DNA from: Candidatus Woesearchaeota archaeon
GTDB lineage: Archaea > Nanobdellota > Nanobdellia > Woesearchaeales > JAGVZT01
Length of the DNA stretch: 64,000 bases
Direction of reading: 5' to 3'
Assembly: GCA_043812815.1 (NCBI GenBank)
Contig: JBDRLT010000040.1
Span: forward strand, 35,724-99,723
The notes below the pieces were generated by a model. That model searched no databases and was not told where the DNA came from. It was given only the letters and a program-made list of their open reading frames with translations. How positions within the stretch are numbered: position 1 is the first letter of the stretch; each line of letters opens with the position of its first letter. Both the position numbers and the translations under genes were made by a program. This document shows, one piece after another, positions 1 to 14,295 of this stretch.

Positions 1-104
1 CCTGTTCAAACAAAAAACCATCACTTTCCAGAAAACTCTTCCTAATTGGTTTCTTCTGCTTACTGGGTTTCTTTTCTTTGTTATCTACCTTGTTTCCATT
101 AGTG

Positions 105-332
105 TTATTGTGTTGCAACTTGTTCACCAGGGGCTCGCTTAACACATACTATGCTTTTCTTGCCAATCTTATACTGTCTGTCTTTGCTTTCAACCATTAC
201 AAAGAACTGGTCTTCAGAAACTACTTTGCCAGTAATGGCAATATCTCTGCCATTATCTGTGTAGATTATCTTGCTTTTCATCCAAACCACCGTCCTGTTC
301 TTTTTCTTTCTTGGCTTTTCTCTGAAGCTCAC
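105..332 (-). CDS. Small basic hypothetical protein co-transcribed with the RHH gene (possible toxin partner)
   Basis: 75-aa ORF overlapping the RHH gene stop (operonic). No recognisable family. It is more plausible than the antisense + strand ORF 78..425. Confidence 0.35.
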   Translation of the reverse strand: MSFREKPRKKKNRTVVWMKSKIIYTDNGRDIAITGKVVSEDQFFVMVESKDRQYKIGKKSIVCVKRAPGEQVATQ

Positions 333-514
333 TCCTCATTTCCATCAACTGGTTTATCCACTCGTTGCTTTGCATTTTCAACCTCCAGGAATTTTGAGAT
401 AGCAATTTTGCATATTGCAGCCTGACTGACATTGCGTCTTCTGGCCAAATCCTCAATATCCAATTTAGCTTTGTCAGGCAAACAGAAAGTAATTGTTCCG
501 TATTTATTTGGCAT
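329..514 (-). CDS. Ribbon-helix-helix (CopG/Arc-like) DNA-binding protein, antitoxin-like
   Basis: 61-aa ORF. The 'TITFCLPDKAKLDIEDLARRRNVSQAAICKIAISKFLE' segment fits the RHH beta-strand/helix-helix pattern. Its stop overlaps the start of the downstream 75-aa ORF by 4 nt. Confidence 0.5.
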   Translation of the reverse strand: MPNKYGTITFCLPDKAKLDIEDLARRRNVSQAAICKIAISKFLEVENAKQRVDKPVDGNEE

Positions 515-729
515 ATTCTTGTTTCTCTTATTAATTCCTAATAATATTATTATTTGGAAAAGCTATATATTTATTTATAGAAATATATAAGACTAACTTA
601 CTTAACACCTAATTCCAAATGGTATTACTCCTAAGTATAAGAATTTTTCCTCTCAGATAACCAAAAGATATATAAAGACTAATATATTACTAATTATATA
701 AACGCTACAATAAAGCATAAAACAAAGAA

Positions 730-1668
730 ATGGCCAAAGCAAATGCATTGAACCGGAAAAACTTAACTAAGACAATAGTCCTGCTTGCAGCAGGAATTAA
801 TTCGAGCAATCTTCTACGTGATGTAGGGAAGATTTCTATAAGCACTTGGGAGAATAACTACAAACCCGCATTGATTGCTAAAAATGACTTTGATTCAAAA
901 GCAAATCCTGATTCAGTGGAAATCATAAGATGGGATAAGAAACCTATGAGTAAAAACAGAAAAAGTTACGAATTTTTATGGGAGATTTTTCTTCAAAAAA
1001 TTGAGCAAAATCTCATAAAAGATTTAGATAAAAATTTGGAAGTTTTTAGTAAATCAGTTTATAATATAATAAAAATAGAAAATCAAGAATATTACCAAAG
1101 AAAGTGGAAAAAGTTCAGGAAAAAAAAGATACCAATACCAAATAGTGGTCAATATTTTGTAGTTAGATTACAACAGCAGCAACTGATAAAAGCAGAACTT
1201 GAAAGGCAGGAAAGAAAGGTTAAGGCGTTTCTTGATAAGTATTCAAGCACATCTTTTCTTTACGAAAACAAGAATGAAAGGAACTTCCTAATTTGTCAGT
1301 TATGCCAATACTTTAAAGAACTGGCAATAGTAAAAATTGATTATGATACTAGTGTTGAGGAAGTTAAAAAATTCATTTTCACTGTTGCTCTGAACGAACA
1401 TATACCCTTCTGGTTACCTTCAGAAAGATATGAGTACCCGTTCAACATCCAAGATATTAAGCCAACTAAGTTCATTGAGAGATTTAAAGAATATTTGTCA
1501 TTGCATAACCTGGGAATTGAGTCTTTAGTAATACTTAAACCACAGTACAACAAATGGGTTGAAGAAGTCACGGAAAAAGCCGAAGAATACTTCAGAAAAA
1601 TTGATGAGGAAAAAGCTATTGAACAGTATGAAAAACAGCATGGGGGTGATATCAAAGCAAAAGACTAA
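730..1668 (+). CDS. Hypothetical Lys-rich protein (orphan, low-GC island)
   Basis: 312-aa ORF in an AT-rich patch (~520-1700) preceded by AT-rich promoter-like DNA. No motif recognised. Confidence 0.5.
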   Translation: MAKANALNRKNLTKTIVLLAAGINSSNLLRDVGKISISTWENNYKPALIAKNDFDSKANPDSVEIIRWDKKPMSKNRKSYEFLWEIFLQKIEQNLIKDLDKNLEVFSKSVYNIIKIENQEYYQRKWKKFRKKKIPIPNSGQYFVVRLQQQQLIKAELERQERKVKAFLDKYSSTSFLYENKNERNFLICQLCQYFKELAIVKIDYDTSVEEVKKFIFTVALNEHIPFWLPSERYEYPFNIQDIKPTKFIERFKEYLSLHNLGIESLVILKPQYNKWVEEVTEKAEEYFRKIDEEKAIEQYEKQHGGDIKAKD

Positions 1669-1685
1669 AGATTCATTGACCAATA

Positions 1686-2909
1686 TTAGCCAGCACTTCG
1701 TGCCCATATGAGCTCAAACTCATGCAGGAATTCAGAAGCGATTTCGGGGTCTTCGATAATGATGATGTTTTCATCATTACGGGTATCTGCATTAGCAGAA
1801 GGGTTAAAAGACCCGGTGATGACAGTGCGGTTATCAATCACGAAAAATTTGTGATGCAAGACCCCTAGTTTGGGATAATAATTTATGGGTAAAGTAATAT
1901 TATGGTGCATGACGTATTTGTTTTTGTCTAGGCTGACATTAATGCCTTGGTATTTTAGTAAGTGGTACATTGAGTAGTTGCTGATTCTGGTTTTTTCAAA
2001 TACTCCTTTGATGTCAATGCCCTGCCGGTGTTTTATTACAAGGTCTATGGCTATGCTCGGATGGGTGAATGAGAAGGCTGTGAAATAGATACTGCGGTTT
2101 GCTGTTCTGATGTGTTTCTGGATTTGATAAGCGCAGTTGTCTTCAGGGCAGAAGTGGTTTTCTATTCTCTTGCCATTGAGGTAAATAACTGGGTAAGGTG
2201 TTGGATTGCCTTTGCCGAATGTGCCTGACCATAGCTCTTGAAATTCTGCCTCGTAGTTTTCTGAGAGGTATCTTGAGTGGATTATGAGCATGTTGTTGTT
2301 ATTCCTGTATGCGCAGTTGTTTGTGGGATTGAAGCTACCTGTGAAGATTACCCTATTGTCTATTATGCAGAATTTGTTGTGCATGAGTGCGCTTCTGTTG
2401 TCGTGTTTAACGATTGGAATTTGCTCAAAATCCAGCCAGTCATGGCGGCTGTCGTCGCTTCGCTCCTCGCTCGGCACCCCGGATGGGGCTTCCCCCGCCT
2501 CGCCAGCGCCATGGCTAGATCTTTCGTTTAAATGCTCAATATTCTCATAGTTGTCTGTGTCTGTTACTATTTTAATATCCAGATTGCTTTGGTAAAGGAA
2601 GTTGATTATTGGTGTTAAGTCAAGGTCGTAGAGGGCGCAATGGATTGATGAGTTGGCGGATTTTAACAGATTAAGTAGTGCAAGTGTGCAGTTTTCTCTT
2701 GGGCAGAAGTAGACCTCAATATGAAAATCTGAAAATTCAGTTGGAACAATCTCTTTGGGGTTCTCAATCACTGGCTCCCGCTTCGCCGTCATCCCTAAAA
2801 GTATCGGATAAATCTGTATCAAGCAAAAAAGGATTAGGAAAATGACGGATAAAGCTATTAAGACCTTAATCCATAATTTCAATCTCCTCTTTTTCGGCAT
2901 AAGTTTCAA
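1686..2909 (-). CDS. Phospholipase D-family protein with two HKD motifs (cardiolipin synthase / PLD-nuclease-like), N-terminal TM anchor
   Basis: Two HxKxxxxD motifs ('MHNKFCIIDNRVIFTGSFNPT' and 'HHKFFVIDNRTVITGSFNPS'). N-terminal hydrophobic helix. Contains a GC-rich low-complexity insert between the HKD halves. Confidence 0.8.
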   Translation of the reverse strand: MKLMPKKRRLKLWIKVLIALSVIFLILFCLIQIYPILLGMTAKREPVIENPKEIVPTEFSDFHIEVYFCPRENCTLALLNLLKSANSSIHCALYDLDLTPIINFLYQSNLDIKIVTDTDNYENIEHLNERSSHGAGEAGEAPSGVPSEERSDDSRHDWLDFEQIPIVKHDNRSALMHNKFCIIDNRVIFTGSFNPTNNCAYRNNNNMLIIHSRYLSENYEAEFQELWSGTFGKGNPTPYPVIYLNGKRIENHFCPEDNCAYQIQKHIRTANRSIYFTAFSFTHPSIAIDLVIKHRQGIDIKGVFEKTRISNYSMYHLLKYQGINVSLDKNKYVMHHNITLPINYYPKLGVLHHKFFVIDNRTVITGSFNPSANADTRNDENIIIIEDPEIASEFLHEFELIWARSAG

Positions 2910-2994
2910 CCAAATTTGGGGATTAATATAGCCAATGGAAAGGAATCCGAAAGATAAACGGTCATAGCATAACCCCTAGCTAATGTGAAACAGC

Positions 2995-4053
2995 CTACTT
3001 TTTATAGCTTAACTTTGAGATAATAATTATTGAGAACAGGGCCAAAACCCCAGATATCCTAAATGCAACTGCAATGTTGTAGATATCAGCGAGATATCCC
3101 AAAACGATTGCATAGATGATGTATCCTAAGTTCGTCAACATGTTATAGGTGGATAAAATTGTGCTCCTATTGGAGGATCTTATTTCCTTGTTTAGGAGGT
3201 TAGCTAAGACTGGCTCTGAGACTGATGAGAAGAAACCTCCAAACATGAATATAAGCACTGCCGGTGGACCTATGATTAGTGTGGAAATGCCTAGCAATAG
3301 ATTCTTGGCAAGCGTAGAAAGTGCAAGTGCCCATTTGTCCCCTATTTTGGTTGAGATATAATGCGATAAGATAGAACCAACAGCCCCGCTAAGCGAGCCA
3401 ATAGCGGCAACGATTCCGAACAGCACAATCGGCAAATTCACATAATTGAAAAAGATCTGGCTAAGATGCCATACTGACTCGCCAATTCCAAAAGTTATCA
3501 TGCCAAAAAGGCCAAGCCACATGATTTGCTTATTGGTCAGGAATTCCCGAACAGAAGCCTGCGTGAACCTTATGTAGCCATCCTCTCGTTCTTCTTTGTA
3601 TTTAGGTTCCACCACTAAGAGGACAAGAATCCAGCCAAGCAAAGCTATAGGTATTGTTAACAGAAAAGGAAGCCTTAGTGAATAAGAGGCCATGAATCCG
3701 CCAAGCAATGAGCCTACCACTGCTCCAACCTGAGTGTAAAACATGTTTCTTCCCAGGATTTTTTTGTAGTCTTTTTCCTTGCCAAGTTCAACCAGCGTGT
3801 CATAATACAGTGCTTCTTGGCAACCGCTATTAAGGGTGTTTTTTAATGCAAATAGGATAGCAAAGATTATCAGCATAAGGAAATTGACTGATAATGATAA
3901 CAATATAATCGCGATAACACTAATAAAGCCTGCAACAGCCATTGTTTTCTTCCGACCGAATGTATCAGCAAGAGCTCCAGTAGGGATCTCCAGTACGAGA
4001 GATATTACAGACATTGTTGCAAATATTACCGCAACTGAGGTGGTGGAAGTCAC
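2995..4053 (-). CDS. MFS (major facilitator superfamily) transporter
   Basis: 352 aa and polytopic (about 10-12 hydrophobic segments) with MFS-like motifs ('GALADTFGRKK', 'GAVVGSLLGG'). Confidence 0.7.
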   Translation of the reverse strand: MTSTTSVAVIFATMSVISLVLEIPTGALADTFGRKKTMAVAGFISVIAIILLSLSVNFLMLIIFAILFALKNTLNSGCQEALYYDTLVELGKEKDYKKILGRNMFYTQVGAVVGSLLGGFMASYSLRLPFLLTIPIALLGWILVLLVVEPKYKEEREDGYIRFTQASVREFLTNKQIMWLGLFGMITFGIGESVWHLSQIFFNYVNLPIVLFGIVAAIGSLSGAVGSILSHYISTKIGDKWALALSTLAKNLLLGISTLIIGPPAVLIFMFGGFFSSVSEPVLANLLNKEIRSSNRSTILSTYNMLTNLGYIIYAIVLGYLADIYNIAVAFRISGVLALFSIIIISKLSYKK

Positions 4054-4288
4054 AATTTTGCTAAAAATAATGTCATTACAGGCAAAAAGAAAGCCAGATT
4101 GGAGATAAACGCACCAATATACATAATTTTGATGTTCCTTTGAAGAAGATTAGCTCTACCCATGCAGGACTTGCACTTGATTAAGTTTATAATCTTTTCT
4201 GCCAAAAATATTTAGAGGAAAAGCGATGAAAAATAGTATCAAAAATAGCACCCCACTGGAAGAGTTAAAGACACATACTTAATGAGGC

Positions 4289-4762
4289 TCATGTTGGATT
4301 GCACAGATTGTACATATTCCTGAAGAATGTCTCCGCATTATTCAGGCTCTCACTAGGGGGTTCTCTATTTGCCTGAGGTAAGGGCTGATAGGTAAACAAG
4401 CCCCGCTTGGATTTCTCTTTCTGGAATATGCCTAATAATACATCAGCCCTTATCATGATCTTTTCATAGATTCTAAGCAGTTCCACATCCATCTCTCCTG
4501 CATCAACCAGCTTCTTAAGGGCTTCGTAGGTCTTCTTGTGCTCTTCAGGCGCTTCGGTCTTGACATTTTTCGTGCCCAGGTAGGCTTTGGCACTATAGGA
4601 TATACAGGAGTAGCTGTGGGAAATGACAGAACTGTAGAATGTCAGAGGTTTCTTTAGCATAAAAACCTCCTTTTGGAGCTTCTCATCATTGGTTATCTTG
4701 AATACAATCCTTGCCAATTCCAGTTCATTTTCTGCTCTTTCAAGGTACAGGATTGAAACCAT
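4289..4762 (-). CDS. HEPN-domain protein (HepT-like toxin partner)
   Basis: 157 aa, all-alpha, directly downstream of and overlapping the MNT gene (canonical MntA-HepT order). HEPN-like 'R(x)4-6H' region. Confidence 0.55.
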   Translation of the reverse strand: MVSILYLERAENELELARIVFKITNDEKLQKEVFMLKKPLTFYSSVISHSYSCISYSAKAYLGTKNVKTEAPEEHKKTYEALKKLVDAGEMDVELLRIYEKIMIRADVLLGIFQKEKSKRGLFTYQPLPQANREPPSESLNNAETFFRNMYNLCNPT

Positions 4763-5363
4763 TTGCAGCGCCTCTCATGATCAGGTTATAAAATAACTGG
4801 CTATTATGGACGGGCAGGTTCTTTCTGGCAATCTCCTTGCCGACATTCTCGTAGTCTGCTTTGAGCATCTCCAGCATCTCAGGCGCGGTTATTATATGAT
4901 AGTCCAGTTTCAGAAGGGATTTATTGCTGGCAGAATGAAGAGCCACATCGATATTTTTCTTATGTGATTTGTCAGGTATAAATATTGCCAGATCAAAATC
5001 CGATCTATCGCTGGCCTTGCCTTCAGTATAGGAGCCGAATACCACAAGGGAATAGAAGATGATGTTAGAGAGTTCCTTGCTGACAATCCTAAGAGACTTT
5101 TGGGCAATACTTGGAAGCCTGTCCTGGCACAATAGCTCAAGATACAGAAACACTTTAGTATTAGATAAGTCAAGAGAGTATAGTTTTGAAGTGCCAACTT
5201 TCCTCTCTTTTACCAGGTTTTCTGTCTTGAATTGCCTGGTGGCTCGCTGAATGACTGAGTTAGACTTTTCTTTTGAATATGCCTTAATCTCTTTGAAGGA
5301 ATACTCTTTGAATATGTTCTTCTGAAATACGCCAAGCAGTTGCAGCTGTTTTTTAGTTATCAC
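4740..5363 (-). CDS. wHTH-fused minimal nucleotidyltransferase (MntA-like antitoxin)
   Basis: 'VVFGSYTEGKASDRSDFDLAIF' matches the GSx9-13DxD nucleotidyltransferase signature. N-terminal ~90 aa is wHTH-like. Overlaps the downstream HEPN ORF by 23 nt. Confidence 0.75.
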   Translation of the reverse strand: MITKKQLQLLGVFQKNIFKEYSFKEIKAYSKEKSNSVIQRATRQFKTENLVKERKVGTSKLYSLDLSNTKVFLYLELLCQDRLPSIAQKSLRIVSKELSNIIFYSLVVFGSYTEGKASDRSDFDLAIFIPDKSHKKNIDVALHSASNKSLLKLDYHIITAPEMLEMLKADYENVGKEIARKNLPVHNSQLFYNLIMRGAANGFNPVP

Positions 5364-5584
5364 GATTGTACCTCATATCGGGTGAGATTGTACCTTTAAC
5401 GGGGTATATTGGTATTTAAACCTTTGTTTTTTCGGCTTGATAGGACTCCATAAGTTCTGCATCAATAAAAACACATTGTGAATTAAAGCAGAGCGGTTGT
5501 CTTGTTTAACTATGTGCTCAAAATCCACTAATCAAACCAAATACTTTTCCAGCAGTCCTCTTTTATTCTGTATTCTCATGCTTA

Positions 5585-6067
5585 TCAGCCGTTTTTCTTT
5601 AACTCTGCTTGGAATTCACTTCTGATTTCCTTAATCTTCTTCTCATTTAATTTGATAAGAATTGACTTACATTTAACTAAGAATTCAGGAGCTTTTGTAA
5701 TCATTTCATTATATTGCTCATCAGGAACAGTCCTATCAATATAATATTGAGAATCTATTCTTGCCTTTAACGAGTCCTCTGTAAAACCCAATTCTTCCTC
5801 TTTGAAATAATCTTTAAGGTATCTCTTTGCAAATTCTATAGTGCATGAATGGATTTCACATTTGATTCCGATTTTTGTCAAAATGGAATAAAGCGAGAAA
5901 TACAGGGTGTAATATGCAGTTGAAATCCTCCAATCTTTTATGATATTTACCCTCATTGATTCAAGAGCCTCTTCAGCTTTCTTAACATAAGCTTCTGCAA
6001 GATTGGAATTTGGTTCAATTAAGTTTAATCCTCCTTTCTTCCCAGCACACCATCTTATCTTATCCAT
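5585..6067 (-). CDS. HEPN-like protein (second module)
   Basis: 160-aa alpha-helical protein immediately downstream of and overlapping the NTase gene. Same architecture as 4289..4762. Confidence 0.5.
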   Translation of the reverse strand: MDKIRWCAGKKGGLNLIEPNSNLAEAYVKKAEEALESMRVNIIKDWRISTAYYTLYFSLYSILTKIGIKCEIHSCTIEFAKRYLKDYFKEEELGFTEDSLKARIDSQYYIDRTVPDEQYNEMITKAPEFLVKCKSILIKLNEKKIKEIRSEFQAELKKNG

Positions 6068-6650
6068 TATTTAGCACCTTTTGTATGAATTGCTCCACAT
6101 TAACAAAAACAATATGGTTTTTCAATATTTCTTTTAATAAAATATCTTTATTTATATTCTTTTCAAAAGTTTCCATAGGATAACACTTCACGCTTATAGC
6201 TATCCCTAAAATCCTTGAAACTTTTTTAATTTCTTCTCTATTATAATCGCCTGCTACAAAAATGTCTAAATCGGATTCTTTATTTTGTGTTCCTTTGGCA
6301 TAGCTTCCAAATATAATCCCTATGCCGTTGATATTTGGAGTTATCTTCTCTATAATCTCCTTTAGCATAAGATTGTTTTCTAAAAGTGAGATTGCCTTAT
6401 GTTGTTCAACAAAAACAAGATATTTTTTTGTAAATTCGCTTAATTTTATTTTATATGCTTTAATCTTACCTTTTGTCTTTGATTCAATAACTCCTTTATC
6501 TTCTAAACCTTCAAGAATAAGTTGTGCTGTTCTTGGACTTATTTTTAGTAATTTTCCAACTTCTCTGATATAATATTCTCTGTTAAAATCATTTGTAAAC
6601 AGAGAGAGGACTTGCAAAGTATTTTCCGTTATACTTAGTTTTTTATACAT
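6060..6650 (-). CDS. wHTH-fused minimal nucleotidyltransferase (second MntA-like copy)
   Basis: 'IIFGSYAKGTQNKESDLDIFV' NTase signature. N-terminal wHTH ('LKISPRTAQLILEGLEDKGVIE'). Overlaps the downstream HEPN-like ORF by 8 nt. Confidence 0.75.
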   Translation of the reverse strand: MYKKLSITENTLQVLSLFTNDFNREYYIREVGKLLKISPRTAQLILEGLEDKGVIESKTKGKIKAYKIKLSEFTKKYLVFVEQHKAISLLENNLMLKEIIEKITPNINGIGIIFGSYAKGTQNKESDLDIFVAGDYNREEIKKVSRILGIAISVKCYPMETFEKNINKDILLKEILKNHIVFVNVEQFIQKVLNNG

Positions 6651-6823
6651 ATGTATGATTAATAATACAACCGATATATAAACCTTGCGGAAATCAGTTT
6701 AAGATATCTTAGTGTTCTTTAGCTTTTAATAATAAGCATTATTTGGCAAGTAAACAATAAACCTGGGATTTTCAAGAAAAGTTTATAAAAAACAACCATA
6801 GTTTCAGTTAAAGAGGTGATCAT

Positions 6824-7672
6824 ATGGATATTACTGGATGGGCGACTCAGGTCAGCAATTTAGATGCATTTAAGCCTTGGTTGCCTGTTATGGGCTTTTT
6901 TTTGGTGTTGATTATTCTGTGGGTTGGGATGTTATTGCTTATTCAACTTGTATTGTTTATTATTAGCTGTGTTAAGCACGACTTGTCTTTTAGTAATGCT
7001 GTTGATAAGTCAGTTGCAGGCTTTAAGAAGTATTATATTAAATTTTTTCACTACTATGTTCCTATTATCGTGATTACTTTGGTGTTGTCGTTTATAGCAA
7101 TAATGCTGCCGTTCTCAGGCACTTTTATGAAAATAGGCATGCTTGCCCTTTCCTTTGTTTTGGCAGTTATTCAAGGGACCTATTTCTTTGTTGTGGATAC
7201 TTCGCTTGCCAAGTCATATTATCTTAGCTTAAAAGGCAAGAAGTTTGTGTTTATGTGGATGAGTGGCTACCAGTTTGTGAAGCTGTTTGCTGTTGGGTTG
7301 ATATTGTTGGCTTTGTTTATACCTTCATTGCTATTATTGGGTATACCCTTTTTGTTTATTGGGTATATTATGCCTTTTGTGAGGTATCCAATTATTGTTG
7401 AGGATTTGGGTGTGATTGAGAGTATTCAGAAGGCTTTTGGGTTATTGAGAAAAAGATTCTGGGATATGGTGTTTTTCACTAGTATGTATGGGTTTTTGCT
7501 GTTTGCGGTTTATCTTGGGCTTGGGATGGTATTCGGATTGTTTGAGCTTATCCCGTATGTTGGGGCAATTTTCCAGGGAGTGCGGAGTATTATTACAATG
7601 GTGGTTGTGCAGCCTTTTGGGACGATATTGTTTACTGAGATGTTTTATGCAGTGGAGAAGTCAATCAGGTAG
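6824..7672 (+). CDS. Polytopic membrane protein of unknown function
   Basis: 282 aa with about 6-7 hydrophobic helices. No catalytic motif recognised. Confidence 0.6.
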   Translation: MDITGWATQVSNLDAFKPWLPVMGFFLVLIILWVGMLLLIQLVLFIISCVKHDLSFSNAVDKSVAGFKKYYIKFFHYYVPIIVITLVLSFIAIMLPFSGTFMKIGMLALSFVLAVIQGTYFFVVDTSLAKSYYLSLKGKKFVFMWMSGYQFVKLFAVGLILLALFIPSLLLLGIPFLFIGYIMPFVRYPIIVEDLGVIESIQKAFGLLRKRFWDMVFFTSMYGFLLFAVYLGLGMVFGLFELIPYVGAIFQGVRSIITMVVVQPFGTILFTEMFYAVEKSIR

Positions 7673-7749: not shown

Positions 7750-10700
7750 TTAACCCAAACCATCTGCGGCGCATGATAGTATATGCTTTTTGCAAATGCC
7801 ATTCTCACAAATTAGTTCAAAAAGCAGGGAACCAAGTAAGCTCCAGCATCCACAAAATCTTTTAGTAGGTTCAACATAGGTCACACTTCCCCGAGTAACT
7901 TCATTGCATTCATAAATAAATCTATTATCTTTTTGATCACAATATGGATTGTCCGGACAGCCAGGGGCATAGCACAATATTTTACCATCAAAAATCATAT
8001 AGCGATAATTGGATGGACATTTAGTACAATAGCCAGACATGTGTTTATTAAGCCCGCTACAACATGCATCAGTATCTGTAAATTCTTCACCTTCATCTAT
8101 ACATCCGAGGATAGAAGCAGTATTTTCTGGCCGACATTTGCAATCGCGGTTGCAATTTAATCCTTCAACACAAGAGTCGCCAACATAGTGCTTATTACAT
8201 AAAGGATCAACTTCAGATGAACAAAATTTATTACACTGATCAACGAACATATCACCGCTTTTTTCTTCAACGGAATATTGGGAACATTCTTTACATCTGT
8301 AATATACTTTTGAGATTGGTCCATCGCATAGTCTATAGCAACTGAACCCTTCAGTGCGAGATGGATCCTCGCTATCCATCTTGCACTCTTCAAGAACAAC
8401 TGGGTCCTTATCATCCCATAAATTGGTGTCACAAACCTCTCCGGAGTCAAGATATCCATTTCCGCATATATCACTTTCAACACATTCTCCTTGGTGATTC
8501 CAGATCTTATTACTATCTCCTGCATCACAGGGACGGCCGGGTATATGACCTGAAGCCATTTGTGTTTTACAAATATTAAATTTATTACACGGCGTATATA
8601 GATAATGTTTCTGATCCATAGATATACAGTCAGATTGTGTTTCTTGAGCGCAGCTGACCTCCTGTCCTGATGTTGTCACACAACAACCAATACTATCTTG
8701 GCTCTGAATACATGCTGCAAGCGTATTACATGGAACATCAGAAAAGTACTCTGGATTCTCCATAATACATTTACTTGATCTAATATTATCTGTACATACA
8801 CTACTAACTATGCAACACCCATATCTATCAGTATCATACAATTCTGGGCACTCGCTTAACCCATATGGTTCTTCTTTATCTCTGCATGAACCTGTAGTAA
8901 CTCTTGAAGCACGCTCAGATTTGCAGCATTTAATAGTTGAAACCTCATCACAAGGTCCATCCTTGATACCATCTTCACAACAGAATTTACCCTTATTACC
9001 ATCATATTCATCTTTGCCACAGATACACCCAGCCAAACCCTCTCCCCACTTGGTCTGATCAGCCTTTGTTAGAAGTGTGTTTTTTGGACATATTATCTTT
9101 CCCCTTGTGAGGTCTTCACTATTACAAACCCCCCCTTCTAAAGATATGAAACCAATTGAACTTGTAACCAATGGATGGCATAGATCCATCTGTCTCACTT
9201 CAGGACCTTTTTTTATTATTAGATCGATCAAAGCGCTGAGTTCCTTACCATCCCTCTCACCATCATCTGTACAGTCGCCATCACATCCACAAAGATAATT
9301 TATCCTGTGCTGGACTTTTATTCCTGAACCTTCTTCAGACTTGCATATTTCTGAGTTTGCTGCTTTTTGATTGAAGAATATGCCACTGCCCTTTATTTTC
9401 ATGGTTACTTTGGCATAAGCGCAACCGTCAAATTTTCCATCATTTTCTTTGTTTTCAACATAGACCCAGAGTTCATTCTCACCTGATTTTATCTTACCCT
9501 CAGTTATTTCATTGAAACCATCAACATTTTCCCACAGACTTTTAGTTGACCATGTAGCCATACTTTGTTTTTCTACTTCACTTGGATTGAATACAATACC
9601 CCTTGTTCCGTCACATGCTGGTTCATCGCCACCGCAGCTTCCGCAGGTATCTTCCCCACAATCCACAGAAACAGAAACATCAGCATTACCTTCCGCATCT
9701 GTTATTACAAGCCCATTATCTCCAGCAACGGTAAATTTAAGCATGCCCCACCCTCCTGCGCCTTTTGGACCTGAAGGATAACCATAGGTTGCATGCGGGG
9801 CAATTTCAACATGAAAATCAAAATTAGAGGGATTAATACCCCCGGCTGCATCTTTTTCCGCAGTGACTGTGACTCTACACCCTTTTATTTCATTGCCTTG
9901 TTCATCATGATCCATTATCTGGTCATTTATCCAGCCATTTGTTTGTAAATCCTCATATTGTTCATTGGTTAATCCCAATTCAGATTTTACCTTTTCAATA
10001 CACTTTTCATACAGTTCATCCAAGTTCACACTGCTACATGCACTAATTCTTCCTTCGGTAGGATTAGTATTATCAATCAACGGGTTATATTGATAATCTT
10101 CACATGCAACCTGGCTAGAATCTTTGAGTTGATCAAATTTCAGATAATCAATGGGTTTACCATTTGTTCCACATTCGCTATTTGGAATAGAACCTGTGAT
10201 AAGGCTAGGATTGGGCGTAATATCTCCAGCTGTCTCATAAGTATTTCCTCCAACTTCCACAGGCCTAACATGCCAGTCATATAAGCGAGAATCTTCTAAA
10301 ATAAACGCTGTTTCAAACAACCCAGGTTCAGATACTTCCCAGTTATCCTTTGGCATTTCTTGGCATGTCTTTAATGTTCCGCAGCTTTGGACAAATACAA
10401 GTTCAGTAAATGAATATTCTTCTACTGATTCGTCATCTTTCTTAACTGTCCTCACTCCCGTAGCTACCTTGGTGAAATGGCTTATTGTGCCTGTCAGAAT
10501 ATTGTTTTCAGTATCAACTGTTGTTGGGATGGATTTCCAGAAGCCTGCTGATTCATCAAAATAGGCAAGCACAAGATAAGGTTCATTCTCTGCTAATGGA
10601 GGAGGTACATCATTTTCATCATATCTAACCTTGATAGTAATTGGCGGGTCAAAAGTTGCGCCGTCTGGTTTGCCGTCATAAATAATGGTTCCAATAATAG

Positions 10701-11355
10701 GGGCATTGCTCATGCCCTGATTGTTTCTGTCAAGCATATTGAATTCAACATCATTAATAGGGTTGCCATCAGAATTGGTAATTCTTGTGCCGGCAGGGAT
10801 ATTGACCTCAGCATCAGCATCAGGCGTCCTTATTGTTTCTTCTTGGGTTGTACGGCCATTAGAATCTAGAGGCAGATTGGTGGCAGTTGAGGTTTTGATA
10901 TAATTGTTAAACTGGTTAAGTGCCTTAATCTCATCTCCTTTTTTCAGGCTAACTTTATAATCAAGATCAACAATAACTGCTGTTGGTTCGATTTTGACAT
11001 GAGGAATAGCAGTGCCTGCGGTTACTTGGAAACCTTGGTTTTCAAACTCCTGGAAGTTAATGCATTCAGGTAAGGTACTAGAAATATATGTTTCAAAGGT
11101 TAAGGGCAGGTTAGGATCCTCATAGCTTACTCCAAAGAGATCGATGGCCTCATAGGTTTTGGCATCCAGGCAGGTTGTGACATACTCCTTAAGTGCTGTG
11201 TTGGCTGATGCCAGTGTAATTTCTTTTTCAAATTTTGGCTGGAAGCTTTCTGCTGCCTTTTGTCTTGCCATGTAGCTGAATCCCCAGAATGCAGCAATTA
11301 TCACAAAGGCAATTATCAAGAACGGAACAATCTGGGCTTTTTTCAAGTTATTCAT
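7750..11355 (-). CDS. Giant secreted/surface protein with Cys-rich C-terminal region (adhesin-like)
   Basis: 1201 aa. N-terminal 'KKAQIVPFLIIAFVIIAAF' signal/anchor. The C-terminal ~450 aa is extremely Cys-rich (CxxC / CGxxC spacing), typical of extracellular disulfide-rich modules. Confidence 0.7.
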   Translation of the reverse strand: MNNLKKAQIVPFLIIAFVIIAAFWGFSYMARQKAAESFQPKFEKEITLASANTALKEYVTTCLDAKTYEAIDLFGVSYEDPNLPLTFETYISSTLPECINFQEFENQGFQVTAGTAIPHVKIEPTAVIVDLDYKVSLKKGDEIKALNQFNNYIKTSTATNLPLDSNGRTTQEETIRTPDADAEVNIPAGTRITNSDGNPINDVEFNMLDRNNQGMSNAPIIGTIIYDGKPDGATFDPPITIKVRYDENDVPPPLAENEPYLVLAYFDESAGFWKSIPTTVDTENNILTGTISHFTKVATGVRTVKKDDESVEEYSFTELVFVQSCGTLKTCQEMPKDNWEVSEPGLFETAFILEDSRLYDWHVRPVEVGGNTYETAGDITPNPSLITGSIPNSECGTNGKPIDYLKFDQLKDSSQVACEDYQYNPLIDNTNPTEGRISACSSVNLDELYEKCIEKVKSELGLTNEQYEDLQTNGWINDQIMDHDEQGNEIKGCRVTVTAEKDAAGGINPSNFDFHVEIAPHATYGYPSGPKGAGGWGMLKFTVAGDNGLVITDAEGNADVSVSVDCGEDTCGSCGGDEPACDGTRGIVFNPSEVEKQSMATWSTKSLWENVDGFNEITEGKIKSGENELWVYVENKENDGKFDGCAYAKVTMKIKGSGIFFNQKAANSEICKSEEGSGIKVQHRINYLCGCDGDCTDDGERDGKELSALIDLIIKKGPEVRQMDLCHPLVTSSIGFISLEGGVCNSEDLTRGKIICPKNTLLTKADQTKWGEGLAGCICGKDEYDGNKGKFCCEDGIKDGPCDEVSTIKCCKSERASRVTTGSCRDKEEPYGLSECPELYDTDRYGCCIVSSVCTDNIRSSKCIMENPEYFSDVPCNTLAACIQSQDSIGCCVTTSGQEVSCAQETQSDCISMDQKHYLYTPCNKFNICKTQMASGHIPGRPCDAGDSNKIWNHQGECVESDICGNGYLDSGEVCDTNLWDDKDPVVLEECKMDSEDPSRTEGFSCYRLCDGPISKVYYRCKECSQYSVEEKSGDMFVDQCNKFCSSEVDPLCNKHYVGDSCVEGLNCNRDCKCRPENTASILGCIDEGEEFTDTDACCSGLNKHMSGYCTKCPSNYRYMIFDGKILCYAPGCPDNPYCDQKDNRFIYECNEVTRGSVTYVEPTKRFCGCWSLLGSLLFELICENGICKKHILSCAADGLG

Positions 11356-11448: not shown

Positions 11449-12009
11449 ATGAATTTGAATGATTTCGGCAAATTTTTCAATTATGCTTTAGGGATTGTGA
11501 GGTTGGATACAACTTCGATCAAACATGTTGTGAAGCATAAAGATGCAACCAGCTGGGCGGTTGTTTTTGTGGTTTTGGCAGGCTTGGCCTCTGCTTTGTT
11601 CAATGATTTCGGTGGAGTATTGGATTTTGTTGTTGGGTTTTTGCTTTGGTCGTTTTTCAGCGTGGGCGTAGTGTGGGTTTTGGCAAAGGTTTTTGGCGGG
11701 AAGGCGAGTTATGTTGAGCAGTATCGCGCTCAGGGTTTGGTCTATGCGATGTATTGGGTGGCTGCGCTGCCTTTTGTCGGTTCAGTTCTTACAGGAATTG
11801 CCCAGCTTTGGAGTCTGGTTGTTGCGGTTGTTGTTGTGAGGACTGTTCATAAGATTACTAGCTTGAAAGCGTTTCTGGCTGTTTTCATCCCTGTGCTGAT
11901 TGCGGTTGTGCTGTTTGCAGTGTTTATTACAGCTGCTGTGTCTTGGCTGATTGCCAACGGAGGATTACCACCAGAAATGATTGCTGAGCTCCAGAGTTTT
12001 ATGCCTTGA
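11449..12009 (+). CDS. Yip1-family integral membrane protein
   Basis: 186 aa with a hydrophilic N-terminus followed by 4-5 TM helices. Resembles Yip1/DUF1282 membrane proteins. Confidence 0.55.
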   Translation: MNLNDFGKFFNYALGIVRLDTTSIKHVVKHKDATSWAVVFVVLAGLASALFNDFGGVLDFVVGFLLWSFFSVGVVWVLAKVFGGKASYVEQYRAQGLVYAMYWVAALPFVGSVLTGIAQLWSLVVAVVVVRTVHKITSLKAFLAVFIPVLIAVVLFAVFITAAVSWLIANGGLPPEMIAELQSFMP

Positions 12010-12658
12010 AGTCTACCTGACCGTCAAGGTACACTCCCTGGTAGAGCTTCACCGGCCGCCAGCTGTCAATCACAGTTTCAGCCTTGAGCCATTGGGCCAA
12101 CTGTTCTGGGTTTCCAATGGTTGCGCTAAGGCATATGAATTGGGCGTTCAAGATTTCCTTGAGAATTGTCAGGAGGATTTCCAGGGTTGGGCCTCTGCTT
12201 GGATCATTCAGGAGATGTATTTCATCAACCACCACCACTTTGATGAGTTTCAGCCAGGGTGAGTGATGCCTTGTCAGACTGTCTAGCTTTTCGCTTGTGG
12301 TTATTATCAGATCATACTCCATAAGGTAGGTGTCTGCAGAGTCAATGTCTCCAATGGTGAGCGCAATTTTGATCAGGTGGCCATAGCGTTTGCTGAAGTC
12401 TTTGAATTTTTCATGCGCCAATGCTTTGAGCGGCACAATATAGACTGCTTTGCCGCCTTCCAGGATGGATTTAAGCATTGCTAGTTCTGCGATGAGGGTT
12501 TTACCAGAAGCTGTAGGGGTGCAAACCAAAAGGTTTTTGCCTTCTAATAGCCCTTGATTTATTGCCTTTTCCTGCGCAGGCCTGAGTGCTGAGATTTGAC
12601 TGGAAAGAACCTGTGCAAGCGGGGCTGGAATTTTGTCTTCAATATCTTTGAGATTCAT
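11999..12658 (-). CDS. Ski2/Hel308-like DEAD/DEAH helicase N-terminal RecA domain only (truncated; possible pseudogene remnant or stand-alone domain)
   Basis: Walker A 'TPTASGKT', motif II 'VVVDEIHLL' and motif III 'SAT' are present. The ORF stops after ~219 aa exactly where helicase domain 2 should begin, and its 3' end overlaps the convergent Yip1 gene. Confidence 0.6.
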   Translation of the reverse strand: MNLKDIEDKIPAPLAQVLSSQISALRPAQEKAINQGLLEGKNLLVCTPTASGKTLIAELAMLKSILEGGKAVYIVPLKALAHEKFKDFSKRYGHLIKIALTIGDIDSADTYLMEYDLIITTSEKLDSLTRHHSPWLKLIKVVVVDEIHLLNDPSRGPTLEILLTILKEILNAQFICLSATIGNPEQLAQWLKAETVIDSWRPVKLYQGVYLDGQVDFKA

Positions 12659-13323: not shown

Positions 13324-14295
13324 CTAGGCTAAATTCTTGATGAGTTTCCAGTTGTGGGGGTTGATGATATGATGTATATAGAAAGGTATGGATCTGAATC
13401 CATAGAAAAACATTGAGCCTTCCCTGTTGCACTGGAGAGGGCAGTCATAGCAAGTAATGTTTTTCAGTCTTTTTACTTGCCCAGTGATTTTTCCCAGTTT
13501 GGTTTCTTTGACCATGCAATCATACACTTCAAGATGGTTGTCTATGTAGAATAGGTTTTGGCCTGCTTTGCATGGGAGAGTCTGCTTCTGTTTGGCGTAG
13601 AAATTCTTCATTTCTTTGAGGAATTCCATATTGTGGGTGACTTTGTTGCCATGCTTCTTTTTTAATTCAATTATTGTGTTGACTGCTTGTATCATTTGGG
13701 CATCTGTAAAATCAATAGAATCATTGTCATTATTGCCGAGCTTGAAGGTACCATGCAGGCTTACTGGCAGACTAAAATAGATACAGTCAAATCCCATGTC
13801 AATAGCAAATTGGGCTGTTTTTTCAAGTTCATTGAAGTTGTGTTTGGCAAGGGTGATTCCAGCATAGGTGGTTATGTTGGTGGATTTGAGGATTGAGAGG
13901 TTATGCCTAAGTTTTTGCAGCAATTTTGGGAGTTTACGGTTTGCATAAACTACTGCTTCATCGTAATGGTCTACAGAAAAGCCAATCAAGTCGAGCTTTG
14001 CCTTGGCCAATTTCTTGATTTTGGCTTCATTTAGGAGGTAGCCATTTGTCATGAGTTGCACAACCATTCCCTGGGCTTTTGCTGCTGTGATGAATTCAAT
14101 AATTTGCGGATATGTTAAAGGCTCACCGCCCGTGATGTGCAGATACCCGCAGTCGAGCTTGGTGCGAATGGCTTTGGCCAATTGTTTTGGGTCAGACAGT
14201 GGATAGGTAGGTTTTTTGGTTTTCCAGAATGAGCAGGTTTTGCATCTTGCATTGCAAAAGTCTGTTACGCTGAAGAACACAATATTTGTTTTCAT
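13324..14295 (-). CDS. Radical SAM enzyme with C-terminal SPASM/twitch-like Cys cluster
   Basis: 'CNARCKTCSFW' CxxxCxxC motif and 'ITGGEPL' SAM-binding motif. C-terminal 'C...C(x)n CYDCPLQC' auxiliary cluster. Confidence 0.75.
   Translation of the reverse strand: MKTNIVFFSVTDFCNARCKTCSFWKTKKPTYPLSDPKQLAKAIRTKLDCGYLHITGGEPLTYPQIIEFITAAKAQGMVVQLMTNGYLLNEAKIKKLAKAKLDLIGFSVDHYDEAVVYANRKLPKLLQKLRHNLSILKSTNITTYAGITLAKHNFNELEKTAQFAIDMGFDCIYFSLPVSLHGTFKLGNNDNDSIDFTDAQMIQAVNTIIELKKKHGNKVTHNMEFLKEMKNFYAKQKQTLPCKAGQNLFYIDNHLEVYDCMVKETKLGKITGQVKRLKNITCYDCPLQCNREGSMFFYGFRSIPFYIHHIINPHNWKLIKNLA

Follow-up and report, generated by a model that had tools for sequence, protein, structure and literature searches.

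Here we show that the left end of a 64,000-nucleotide stretch of DNA from a Candidatus Woesearchaeota archaeon (NCBI GenBank assembly GCA_043812815.1, contig JBDRLT010000040.1, positions 35,724 to 99,723; hereafter the window, meaning the whole stretch analysed) is a mosaic of three kinds of sequence, and not the single defence and addiction island that a first-pass annotation had proposed for its first 6.6 kb. The part at 1-1668 is a four-gene cassette, made up of a ribbon-helix-helix (RHH) gene, a gene for a 58-aa beta-barrel protein, a gene cut by the left edge of the window and a divergent gene for a 312-aa orphan protein, and it is also carried by nine other metagenomic contigs. We propose that this cassette is the outer, terminal replication-regulation module of an element of plasmid or virus type that has inserted into a woesearchaeotal chromosome, that the phospholipase D (PLD) and major facilitator superfamily (MFS) genes beyond it would be chromosomal genes of matching composition, and that the two nucleotidyltransferase (NTase)/HEPN pairs that follow would be toxin-antitoxin-type or candidate defence modules. 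Our joint confidence in this whole three-part explanation is about 65%. The most useful result is the cassette itself, a recurring, previously unannotated and putative replication/regulation cassette of DPANN-type mobile elements with two uncharacterised protein families.

All open reading frames (ORFs) named in the first-pass annotation were found at their coordinates, and the region is supported as accessory sequence with content related to mobile elements and toxin-antitoxin systems. It is not one unit, because its composition is heterogeneous. Mean GC content in the window is 42%, against which the AT-rich patch already noted around the orphan gene (500-1700) falls to 29-31%; a second, stronger patch at 5250-7000 (28-33% GC) spans the second NTase/HEPN pair. 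When the GC of each gene was compared with that of 33 other genes in the window, the orphan gene (32.3%, z = -4.3, about 10 points under the host) and the HEPN-like (32.7%, z = -4.1) and NTase (27.4%, z = -6.2) genes of pair 2 stood apart, the last being the most foreign gene in the region, whereas the PLD, MFS and pair 1 genes have host-like GC, within about one standard deviation. A codon index resembling the codon adaptation index was uninformative, giving no separation between genes of the region. No convincing attachment (att)-like or transposon-end repeats were found in a DNA repeat scan of 1-12 kb, and no tRNA genes or Rfam RNAs in the window. Signs of decay are a frameshift in the MFS gene, a fragment of a PLD gene and the shortening of hel308. 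What survives of the island is its accessory nature, foreign composition, decay and matches to the defence candidate PDC-M05A, but not its unity.

Architecture of the cassette

The three cassette genes visible in the window are all intact. At the head of the minus-strand operon, the RHH gene (329-514) encodes a 61-aa CopG/ORF56-like protein, the probable operon repressor. Its match to Pfam RHH_1 is very weak (E 0.09), and among PHROGs it matches a CopG-like repressor (E 1e-3). Searched against the PDB, a profile of the RHH family finds ORF56 of plasmid pRN1 as its best match (2k9i/3ft7, E 7.9e-6), followed by CopG-family regulators (7.5e-4) and, in third place, the antitoxin VapB26 (8.8e-4).

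Next on the same strand is the small gene (105-281; NCBI ABIG95_05145), which had been described as a 75-aa partner overlapping the RHH gene. Both genes exist, but the partner is probably 58 aa long and begins at M18 (position 281) of the longer form, which would reach 332: this methionine is invariant across five homologues, the 58-aa form is the one annotated by NCBI, and GGTGG lies 5 nt 5' of that start. This casts doubt on its 4-nt overlap with the RHH gene. The small protein is basic (pI 9.5) and is modelled with five beta-strands as an Sm/SH3-like barrel (predicted local distance difference test score, pLDDT, of 65 overall and about 80 in the core). Structure comparison of the model gave weak Hfq/Sm-like matches only, and no toxin family was matched in Pfam, NCBIfam, PHROGs or PADLOC. 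Profile searches of the PDB with this protein and with the orphan returned nothing significant (7xi6, 'C56', at E 0.24). An apparent relative at L003 3305-3409, the sole match among GTDB representative genomes, was rejected as a chance match in an ABC-transporter ATPase gene of Luteolibacter algae.

The truncated gene at the left edge (1-145, minus strand) shows 48 codons of its 5' end. Starting at GTG145 or TTG118, its frame stays open as far as position 1 and, with either start codon, overlaps the 3' end of the small gene (105). We infer that it is the cassette's large NTPase or replicative helicase, a prediction made because a large or end-truncated ORF lies directly 3' of the small gene in the nine other cassette contigs.

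Divergent from this operon is the orphan gene (730-1668, plus strand; NCBI ABIG95_05155), whose product is, as had been remarked, rich in lysine (13.5%). A word-indexed search of 5.8 billion proteins matched the orphan to itself only. It does have relatives, contrary to its first description: when 1.84 billion cluster representatives were scanned exhaustively with HMMER, eight full-length remote homologues at 24-33% identity were recovered, making an extremely rare family of nine members in that set. No matches came from a JGI metagenome scan with a sub-alignment of the family. The structural model (pLDDT 79, predicted template modelling score 0.71) comprises a winged helix at the N-terminus (10-82), then a long hairpin of helices (84-170) and, at the C-terminus, a helical domain for which no known fold was matched; a fold search of BFVD likewise gave no match for the orphan. 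Residues invariant in the family are G22, W40, L48, N185, I188, Y194, F195 and P271, none of them catalytic-looking, and the alignment contains no invariant Arg, His, Lys, Asp or Ser. The winged-helix model suggests that the protein is probably the cassette's DNA-binding regulator or origin-recognition protein, and speaks against the toxin or abortive-infection component that had been imagined. An assignment as a tyrosine recombinase was rejected, as neither the R-K-H-R-H/W-Y catalytic residues nor a Phage_integrase fold was found.

Between the two transcription units lies a 215-bp spacer (515-729) of 21% GC with two 18-nt direct repeats (532 and 610), two 12-nt direct repeats (558 and 663) and a palindrome (669-700). 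Equivalent spacers in six related loci have 12-23% GC and only TATA-like words in common. From its sequence, the spacer is a probable site of promoters and operators and a possible site of an origin. The stop codon of the orphan gene (1668) closes the cassette, and the convergent PLD gene lies 17 nt away.

Gene order in the related loci (numbered L001 to L012, with L002 repeating L001) is well preserved. Upstream sequence is available for the orphan-family members in L004, L006, L007, L010 and L011, and for a weak member in L008 (a divergent 409-aa gene, E 4.6e-5 among 912 ORFs). In every one of these contigs the orphan-family gene is transcribed away from an operon in which one or two tiny genes precede a small and then a large one, with products of 61, 73 and at least 398 aa in L004, 45, 158 and 432 aa in L006, 45, 68 and 486 aa in L007, 35, 63 and 326 aa in L010, and 46, 70, 73 and 491 aa in L011. 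Independent searches with the small protein led to three further loci. L008 encodes a 51-aa RHH protein (46% identical to that of the window), an 82-aa protein (54%) and a 481-aa protein; L001/L002 encode an RHH protein of 50 aa followed by proteins of 92, 58 and at least 696 aa, with a tyrosine-recombinase-like gene ahead; the third is L009.

Homologues of the small beta-barrel protein are found in L001, L002, L004, L008, L009, L010 and L011. In eight of the nine other loci, as in the window, the 3' end of the small gene overlaps or abuts the start of the large gene; the exception is L006, where the small-gene slot is filled by a 158-aa gene that is not a beta-barrel homologue. The constant neighbour of the small gene is this downstream large or end-truncated ORF, while the gene ahead of it varies: a zinc-ribbon ORF in L009, a 35-aa non-RHH mini-protein in L010, and, standing between the RHH and small genes, a 70-aa mini-protein in L011 and a 92-aa gene in L001. 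Because the cassette recurs with a large NTPase gene directly downstream, the pairing of RHH gene and partner is poorly described as an addiction module.

A mini-protein whose N-terminus bears the motif P-x-W-[IV]-x-x-[LF]-E-K-[IL] is encoded in L006 (2764-2901), L007 (9604-9741), L010 (3246-3353) and L011 (4757-4969). It fills the first operon slot in cassettes that have no RHH gene, and in L011 it comes after the RHH gene.

Among contigs that reach past the small gene, L008 and L009 are the two closest to the window by small-protein identity. The 481-aa large protein of L008 matches DUF5906 (2.4e-15) and D5_N and is 50-58% identical to many JGI proteins described as 'P4 family phage/plasmid primase-like', on which grounds we read it as a D5/P4-type superfamily 3 (SF3) helicase; the downstream ORF of L009, judged from its translation by eye, appears to be a D5-like helicase too. 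The large protein of L004 is weakly DUF3987/DNA-primase-like and that of L010 AAA_25/DnaB_C-like. Walker-A motifs were found by regular expression in the large proteins of L007, L008 and L001, and P-loop-like strings were seen by eye in those of L004, L006 and L010. No primase-polymerase (prim-pol) domain was detected in the cassette large proteins.

Directly 3' of the large NTPase gene, L007 (7052-7624) and L008 (10893-11453) encode proteins of 186-190 aa that are 61.5% identical, although the preceding NTPases have no BLAST similarity to each other. These proteins have a weak PHROG match to a terminase small subunit (E 0.002).

The closest parallel is with plasmid pRN1, in which orf56 and orf904 form a replication operon of a transcriptional repressor and a prim-pol/SF3-helicase Rep protein, and a separate protein, ORF80, binds DNA site-specifically and is encoded in a region required for stable maintenance (PMC4234260). 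As in pRN1, the operon starts with a small RHH gene and finishes with a large replication NTPase (of SF3 helicase type in L008 and, apparently, L009), the best solved relative of the RHH family is ORF56 itself, and a separate predicted DNA-binding protein is encoded nearby, as ORF80 is. Unlike pRN1, the cassette has an extra beta-barrel gene separating the RHH gene from that of the helicase, the helicase of L008 combines D5_N and SF3 domains without prim-pol, and the divergent partner is a 312-aa winged-helix and helical protein in place of an 80-aa protein of leucine-zipper type. Whereas pRN1 is a Sulfolobus plasmid, the hosts of the cassette are DPANN-like, its helicase type varies, and the window's own helicase would lie beyond the edge. 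The hosts of the other loci are low in GC (about 30%), and L007 carries archaeal core genes. A second parallel, with P4/D5 satellite modules, is seen in the identity, DUF5906 and D5_N of the L008 helicase and in the position of the element beside cellular genes; it does not extend to the RHH, beta-barrel and winged-helix proteins, which have no or weak counterparts in PHROGs, nor are such cassettes found in IMG/VR.

Proposed mobility of the cassette

Conservation of gene order was found for the left cassette only, and there in different chromosomal neighbourhoods; this combination of kept order and changing surroundings argues for a mobile and not a housekeeping module. The orphan-family gene always stands at the outer edge of the cassette, beside cellular genes that vary between contigs: tRNA-intron endonuclease, U32 peptidase, S17e, Alba and aminoacyl-tRNA synthetase genes in L007; acetyltransferase and HhH-GPD genes in L004; HhH-GPD in L012; a PemK pair and then PHP and PurA in L011; and TctA, AlaE, TrmB and AbiEii in L005. 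Five distinct sets of flanking genes, together with the foreign composition of the orphan gene, are what would be expected of a mobile element. Further mobile-element-type genes are a weak Pfam match to a tyrosine recombinase and an HNH_3 gene in L001, an HNH endonuclease gene in L008, and a 939-aa protein in L011 that matches phrog_3830 (1.8e-79).

In both L004 (3592-4194) and L012 (1126-1980) the gene adjoining the orphan-family member encodes an HhH-GPD DNA glycosylase, which may reflect a preferred integration site or merely related hosts. Beside the cassette in L007 (877-4141) are DUF2130, DUF2326 and MC6 genes, which we take to be components of ABC-3C type; AbiEii, SLFN/AlbA_2-HATPase, DUF1016 and methyltransferase genes lie beside it in L005 (5024-10401), and DUF7557 and PemK in L011 (6567-7125). 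Either these elements carry defence and toxin-antitoxin cargo, or they insert at hot spots.

On the mechanism that we propose, the minus-strand operon would be read from the RHH repressor through the basic 58-aa beta-barrel protein to the large NTPase. By analogy with orf56/orf904 of pRN1, the RHH protein would repress the operon promoter and so set the level of replication helicase. The small protein may serve as an accessory nucleic-acid-binding subunit, a role suggested by the way its gene overlaps or abuts the NTPase start. The winged-helix protein would act on the AT-rich, repeat-bearing spacer, either as a regulator or by marking an origin or maintenance site for the helicase. A bolder version of this mechanism would make the 312-aa family and the beta-barrel protein together an undescribed origin-recognition, helicase-recruitment or integration system of DPANN mobile elements, working with interchangeable NTPases (SF3, DUF3987-like or RecA/DnaB-like); we put it forward tentatively, as an idea that is more probably wrong than right.

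Several observations weigh against the integrated-element explanation. The window edge cuts the cassette and places the left flank outside, so that helicase, integrase and attachment site are all unseen in this genome, where integration itself is what we infer. A tblastn comparison of the 48 visible residues of the left gene with the N-terminus of the L008 helicase gave nothing at E <= 0.1, leaving any resemblance anecdotal. With a profile built from these 48 codons and the L008 helicase, the left neighbour in the ABIG95 annotation was absent from the best 120 of 1,559 D5-like matches, which leaves room for a different kind of large gene in the window. Between loci the large NTPase varies in any case, with other NTPase types or unassigned proteins in L004, L006, L007, L010 and L011; several large proteins match no assigned family. 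Finally, no member of the orphan family or cassette was found in IMG/VR, among INPHARED phages or among PLSDB plasmids, and for that reason only integrated or fragmentary copies are documented.

That last result, and the decay around the cassette, would also fit a cassette that is no longer mobile, being a remnant or a domesticated module, such as a captured extra-chromosomal origin with its own initiator that has become fixed. This seems quite unlikely to us, given that the orphan gene is still strongly foreign in composition, the visible cassette genes are intact, and a family so rare occurs in differing neighbourhoods. It is more doubtful still that the 312-aa family is a new integration or excision protein, either a recombinase or a recombination directionality factor. 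Such a role would explain the constant terminal position of the orphan gene next to host genes (in L004, L005, L007, L011, L012 and the window, and probably in L008), the shared HhH-GPD neighbour of L004 and L012 hints at site preference, 10 kb of L007 element sequence contains no recognisable integrase, and Y194 is invariant; but in Pfam, PHROGs, NCBIfam and the PDB the family resembles neither tyrosine or serine recombinases nor DDE or HUH enzymes, it lacks invariant Arg, His, Lys, Asp and Ser, and L001 has the more conventional recombinase-like gene instead. Highly improbable is the view that the RHH protein and its small partner form a type II toxin-antitoxin pair, with the orphan as a new toxin or abortive-infection effector in one defence island: RHH proteins are often antitoxins, VapB26 is among the profile matches, the two genes are same-strand neighbours, and toxin-antitoxin or defence genes lie beside the cassette here and in L005 (AbiEii), L011 (PemK) and L007 (DUF2326/MC6), yet the small protein is barrel-like and matches no toxin family, its gene is bound to the NTPase gene and not to the RHH gene (L009, L010, L011 and L001), the orphan is a modelled winged-helix protein in which only G, W, L, N, I, Y, F and P residues are invariant, and the island is compositionally mixed.

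The PLD and MFS genes and the NTase/HEPN pairs

Convergent with the orphan gene, the PLD gene (1686-2909, minus strand) encodes a 407-aa, membrane-anchored protein with two Nuc-like HKD domains. The match to Pfam PLDc_2 (8.6e-40) and two intact HxKx4Dx6GSxN motifs at residues 177 and 352 bear out the two-HKD description it had been given. Its best PDB matches are Zucchini/MitoPLD (4ggj), Nuc of pKM101 (1byr) and NucT (6ehi), whereas cardiolipin synthase (E 1e-3) and PssA are marginal; the NCBIfam match to NucT (7.7e-18) is far below cut-off. It departs from this clade in having two Nuc-like domains in one chain in place of a homodimer, an N-terminal membrane anchor, an acidic low-complexity insert between the PLD halves, and scores far under the NucT equivalog cut-offs. 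The N-terminus consists of KKRRLK followed by one hydrophobic helix, a sequence that suggests an N-in/C-out topology with the domains facing outward, and we consider the protein a probable extracellular nuclease or phosphodiesterase. DPANN archaea are generally nucleotide auxotrophs, and the enzyme is on that account plausibly used for harvesting nucleic acids.

A different reading, that the protein is a defence nuclease of DrmC or DpdK type or a phospholipid enzyme and not a nutrient-scavenging surface nuclease, finds some encouragement in PADLOC matches to DrmC (down to 1e-11), DpdK, PbeA and MkoB/C, in an NCBIfam match to DISARM_DrmC_I (5.3e-10), and in the toxin-antitoxin-like pairs nearby. 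All these matches are far under curated cut-offs (DrmC 39.2 bits against 133), the neighbouring genes include no DISARM (drmA/B, methyltransferase), Dpd or Mokosh partners, and composition is host-like. The predicted anchor would place the domains outside the cell, unlike cytoplasmic DrmC, and NucT, Nuc and Zucchini outscore the cardiolipin and phosphatidylserine synthases. We therefore regard both the defence and the lipid role as unlikely, including the defence-type HKD gene of the first-pass annotation.

Beyond it, the MFS transporter gene (2995-4205, minus strand) is frameshifted near 4053-4060. The family assignment holds, with an MFS_1 match of 1.3e-33 for the 352-aa ORF at 2995-4053, but this match starts at model position 30, and the first transmembrane helix (TM1) is encoded in another frame by a 51-aa ORF upstream (4050-4205); when the two are fused the match starts at model position 2. 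There is accordingly no intact 12-TM reading frame. The split gene is either a pseudogene or an assembly indel, and we describe it as a decaying transporter gene.

Two NTase/HEPN pairs follow, all on the minus strand. Pair 1 comprises a 157-aa HEPN-like protein (4289-4762; Pfam HEPN E 0.007, below cut-off) and a 207-aa winged helix-turn-helix (wHTH) NTase (4740-5363; NTP_transf_2 2e-7, PADLOC PDC-M05A 2.5e-8, motif GS...DFD). Pair 2 comprises a 160-aa HEPN-like protein (5585-6067; Pfam HEPN 2.4e-4 across the full domain, with 21.7 bits for a cut-off of 22) and a 196-aa wHTH-NTase (6060-6650; NTP_transf_2 5.6e-9, PDC-M05A 5.9e-17, motif GS...DLD). In both pairs the upstream NTase gene overlaps the downstream HEPN gene, by 23 and 8 nt. 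The NTase half of the earlier description stands, with the GSx(n)DxD signature intact in the motifs GSYTEGKASDRSDFD and GSYAKGTQNKESDLD; the HEPN half is weakly supported, and the label 'HepT/MntA-like' does not fit. The defining RNase motif Rx4-6H (searched as R.{4,6}H) is missing from both HEPN proteins, which carry Rx4Y instead (RGLFTY in pair 1, RIDSQY in pair 2), and the match to the NCBIfam model MntA_antitoxin reaches 28.4 bits, where the cut-off is 60.

PDC-M05 is an NTase plus HEPN candidate of toxin-antitoxin-like architecture without experimental validation; it is over-represented in archaea, as compact candidates of this sort are in DPANN genomes (PMC12988326). The pairs resemble it in their overlapping gene order, seen twice, and in the PADLOC matches of both NTases. 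They differ in the Rx4Y motif, in the low MntA_antitoxin score and in their HEPN partners, for which no PADLOC model, M05B included, was matched at E <= 0.1. With NTases only 28% identical and HEPN proteins barely alignable, a recent tandem duplication was rejected, and by their sequences the pairs appear to be old paralogues.

Between the two pairs sits a 27-aa PLD remnant (5454-5528, minus strand) corresponding to residues 159-185 of the intact protein (BLASTP 16/27 identical, E 6e-8, confirmed by tblastn), with its HKD motif decayed to H-x-N. The remnant is bounded on both sides by the pairs, which shows that these inserted into an older gene or took its place. In the proposed history, both pairs would overlie the remains of this second PLD gene, and pair 2 would have been acquired recently from an AT-rich source.

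Rightward extent and significance

Downstream of the pairs, genes for a 282-aa membrane protein, a 1201-aa Cys-rich protein and a Yip1-domain protein have weak family matches or none. The 1201-aa protein (7750-11355, minus strand) matches nothing in Pfam, NCBIfam or PADLOC and has low GC at third codon positions (z = -2.4); its N-terminus, MNNLKKAQIVPFLIIAFVIIAAF, resembles an archaeal class III (pilin-type) signal peptide, and it may be a large surface or attachment protein. A shortened hel308 gene follows at 11999-12658 (minus strand), matching the ATP-dependent DNA helicase model PRK02362 of NCBIfam (5.1e-82) over positions 1-218 of 739. The rest of hel308 is absent from every frame and from elsewhere in the window, and the end of the ORF overlaps the convergent Yip1 gene. 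This truncation is a real breakpoint, whether biological or an assembly join (chimeric contig), and is a candidate for the right border of an insertion of at least 12 kb whose left end would lie outside the window. Together, the PLD fragment between the pairs and the shortened hel308 at 12.0 kb point to turnover of genes. The first clear housekeeping genes (SMC, DNA ligase) appear at about 17.7 kb.

In a radical SAM protein encoded at 13324-14295 (minus strand), the N-terminal 115-156 residues match prokaryotic viperin models (PADLOC pVip 6e-20; NCBIfam viperin_w_prok 7e-18, below its cut-off of 180). Matches to other radical SAM maturases are about equally good, and for this reason the protein is probably generic.

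To our knowledge, DPANN mobile elements are almost unknown beyond metagenomic virus predictions. With its two uncharacterised families and swappable helicases, the recurring cassette gives a means of spotting such elements in metagenome-assembled genomes, and is a possible minimal replicon for genetic tools in uncultivated or co-cultured DPANN archaea. For annotation, the lesson is that an RHH gene and an adjacent small ORF are not a toxin-antitoxin pair by default. The NTase/HEPN pairs, the putative surface nuclease and the decaying transporter are ordinary DPANN accessory content. Should the cassette prove to encode a new recognition system with interchangeable NTPases, its carriers would make up a new family of plasmids or proviruses in DPANN archaea; as an integrated element, the cassette would give a first view of a rare mobile-element family in tiny archaea.

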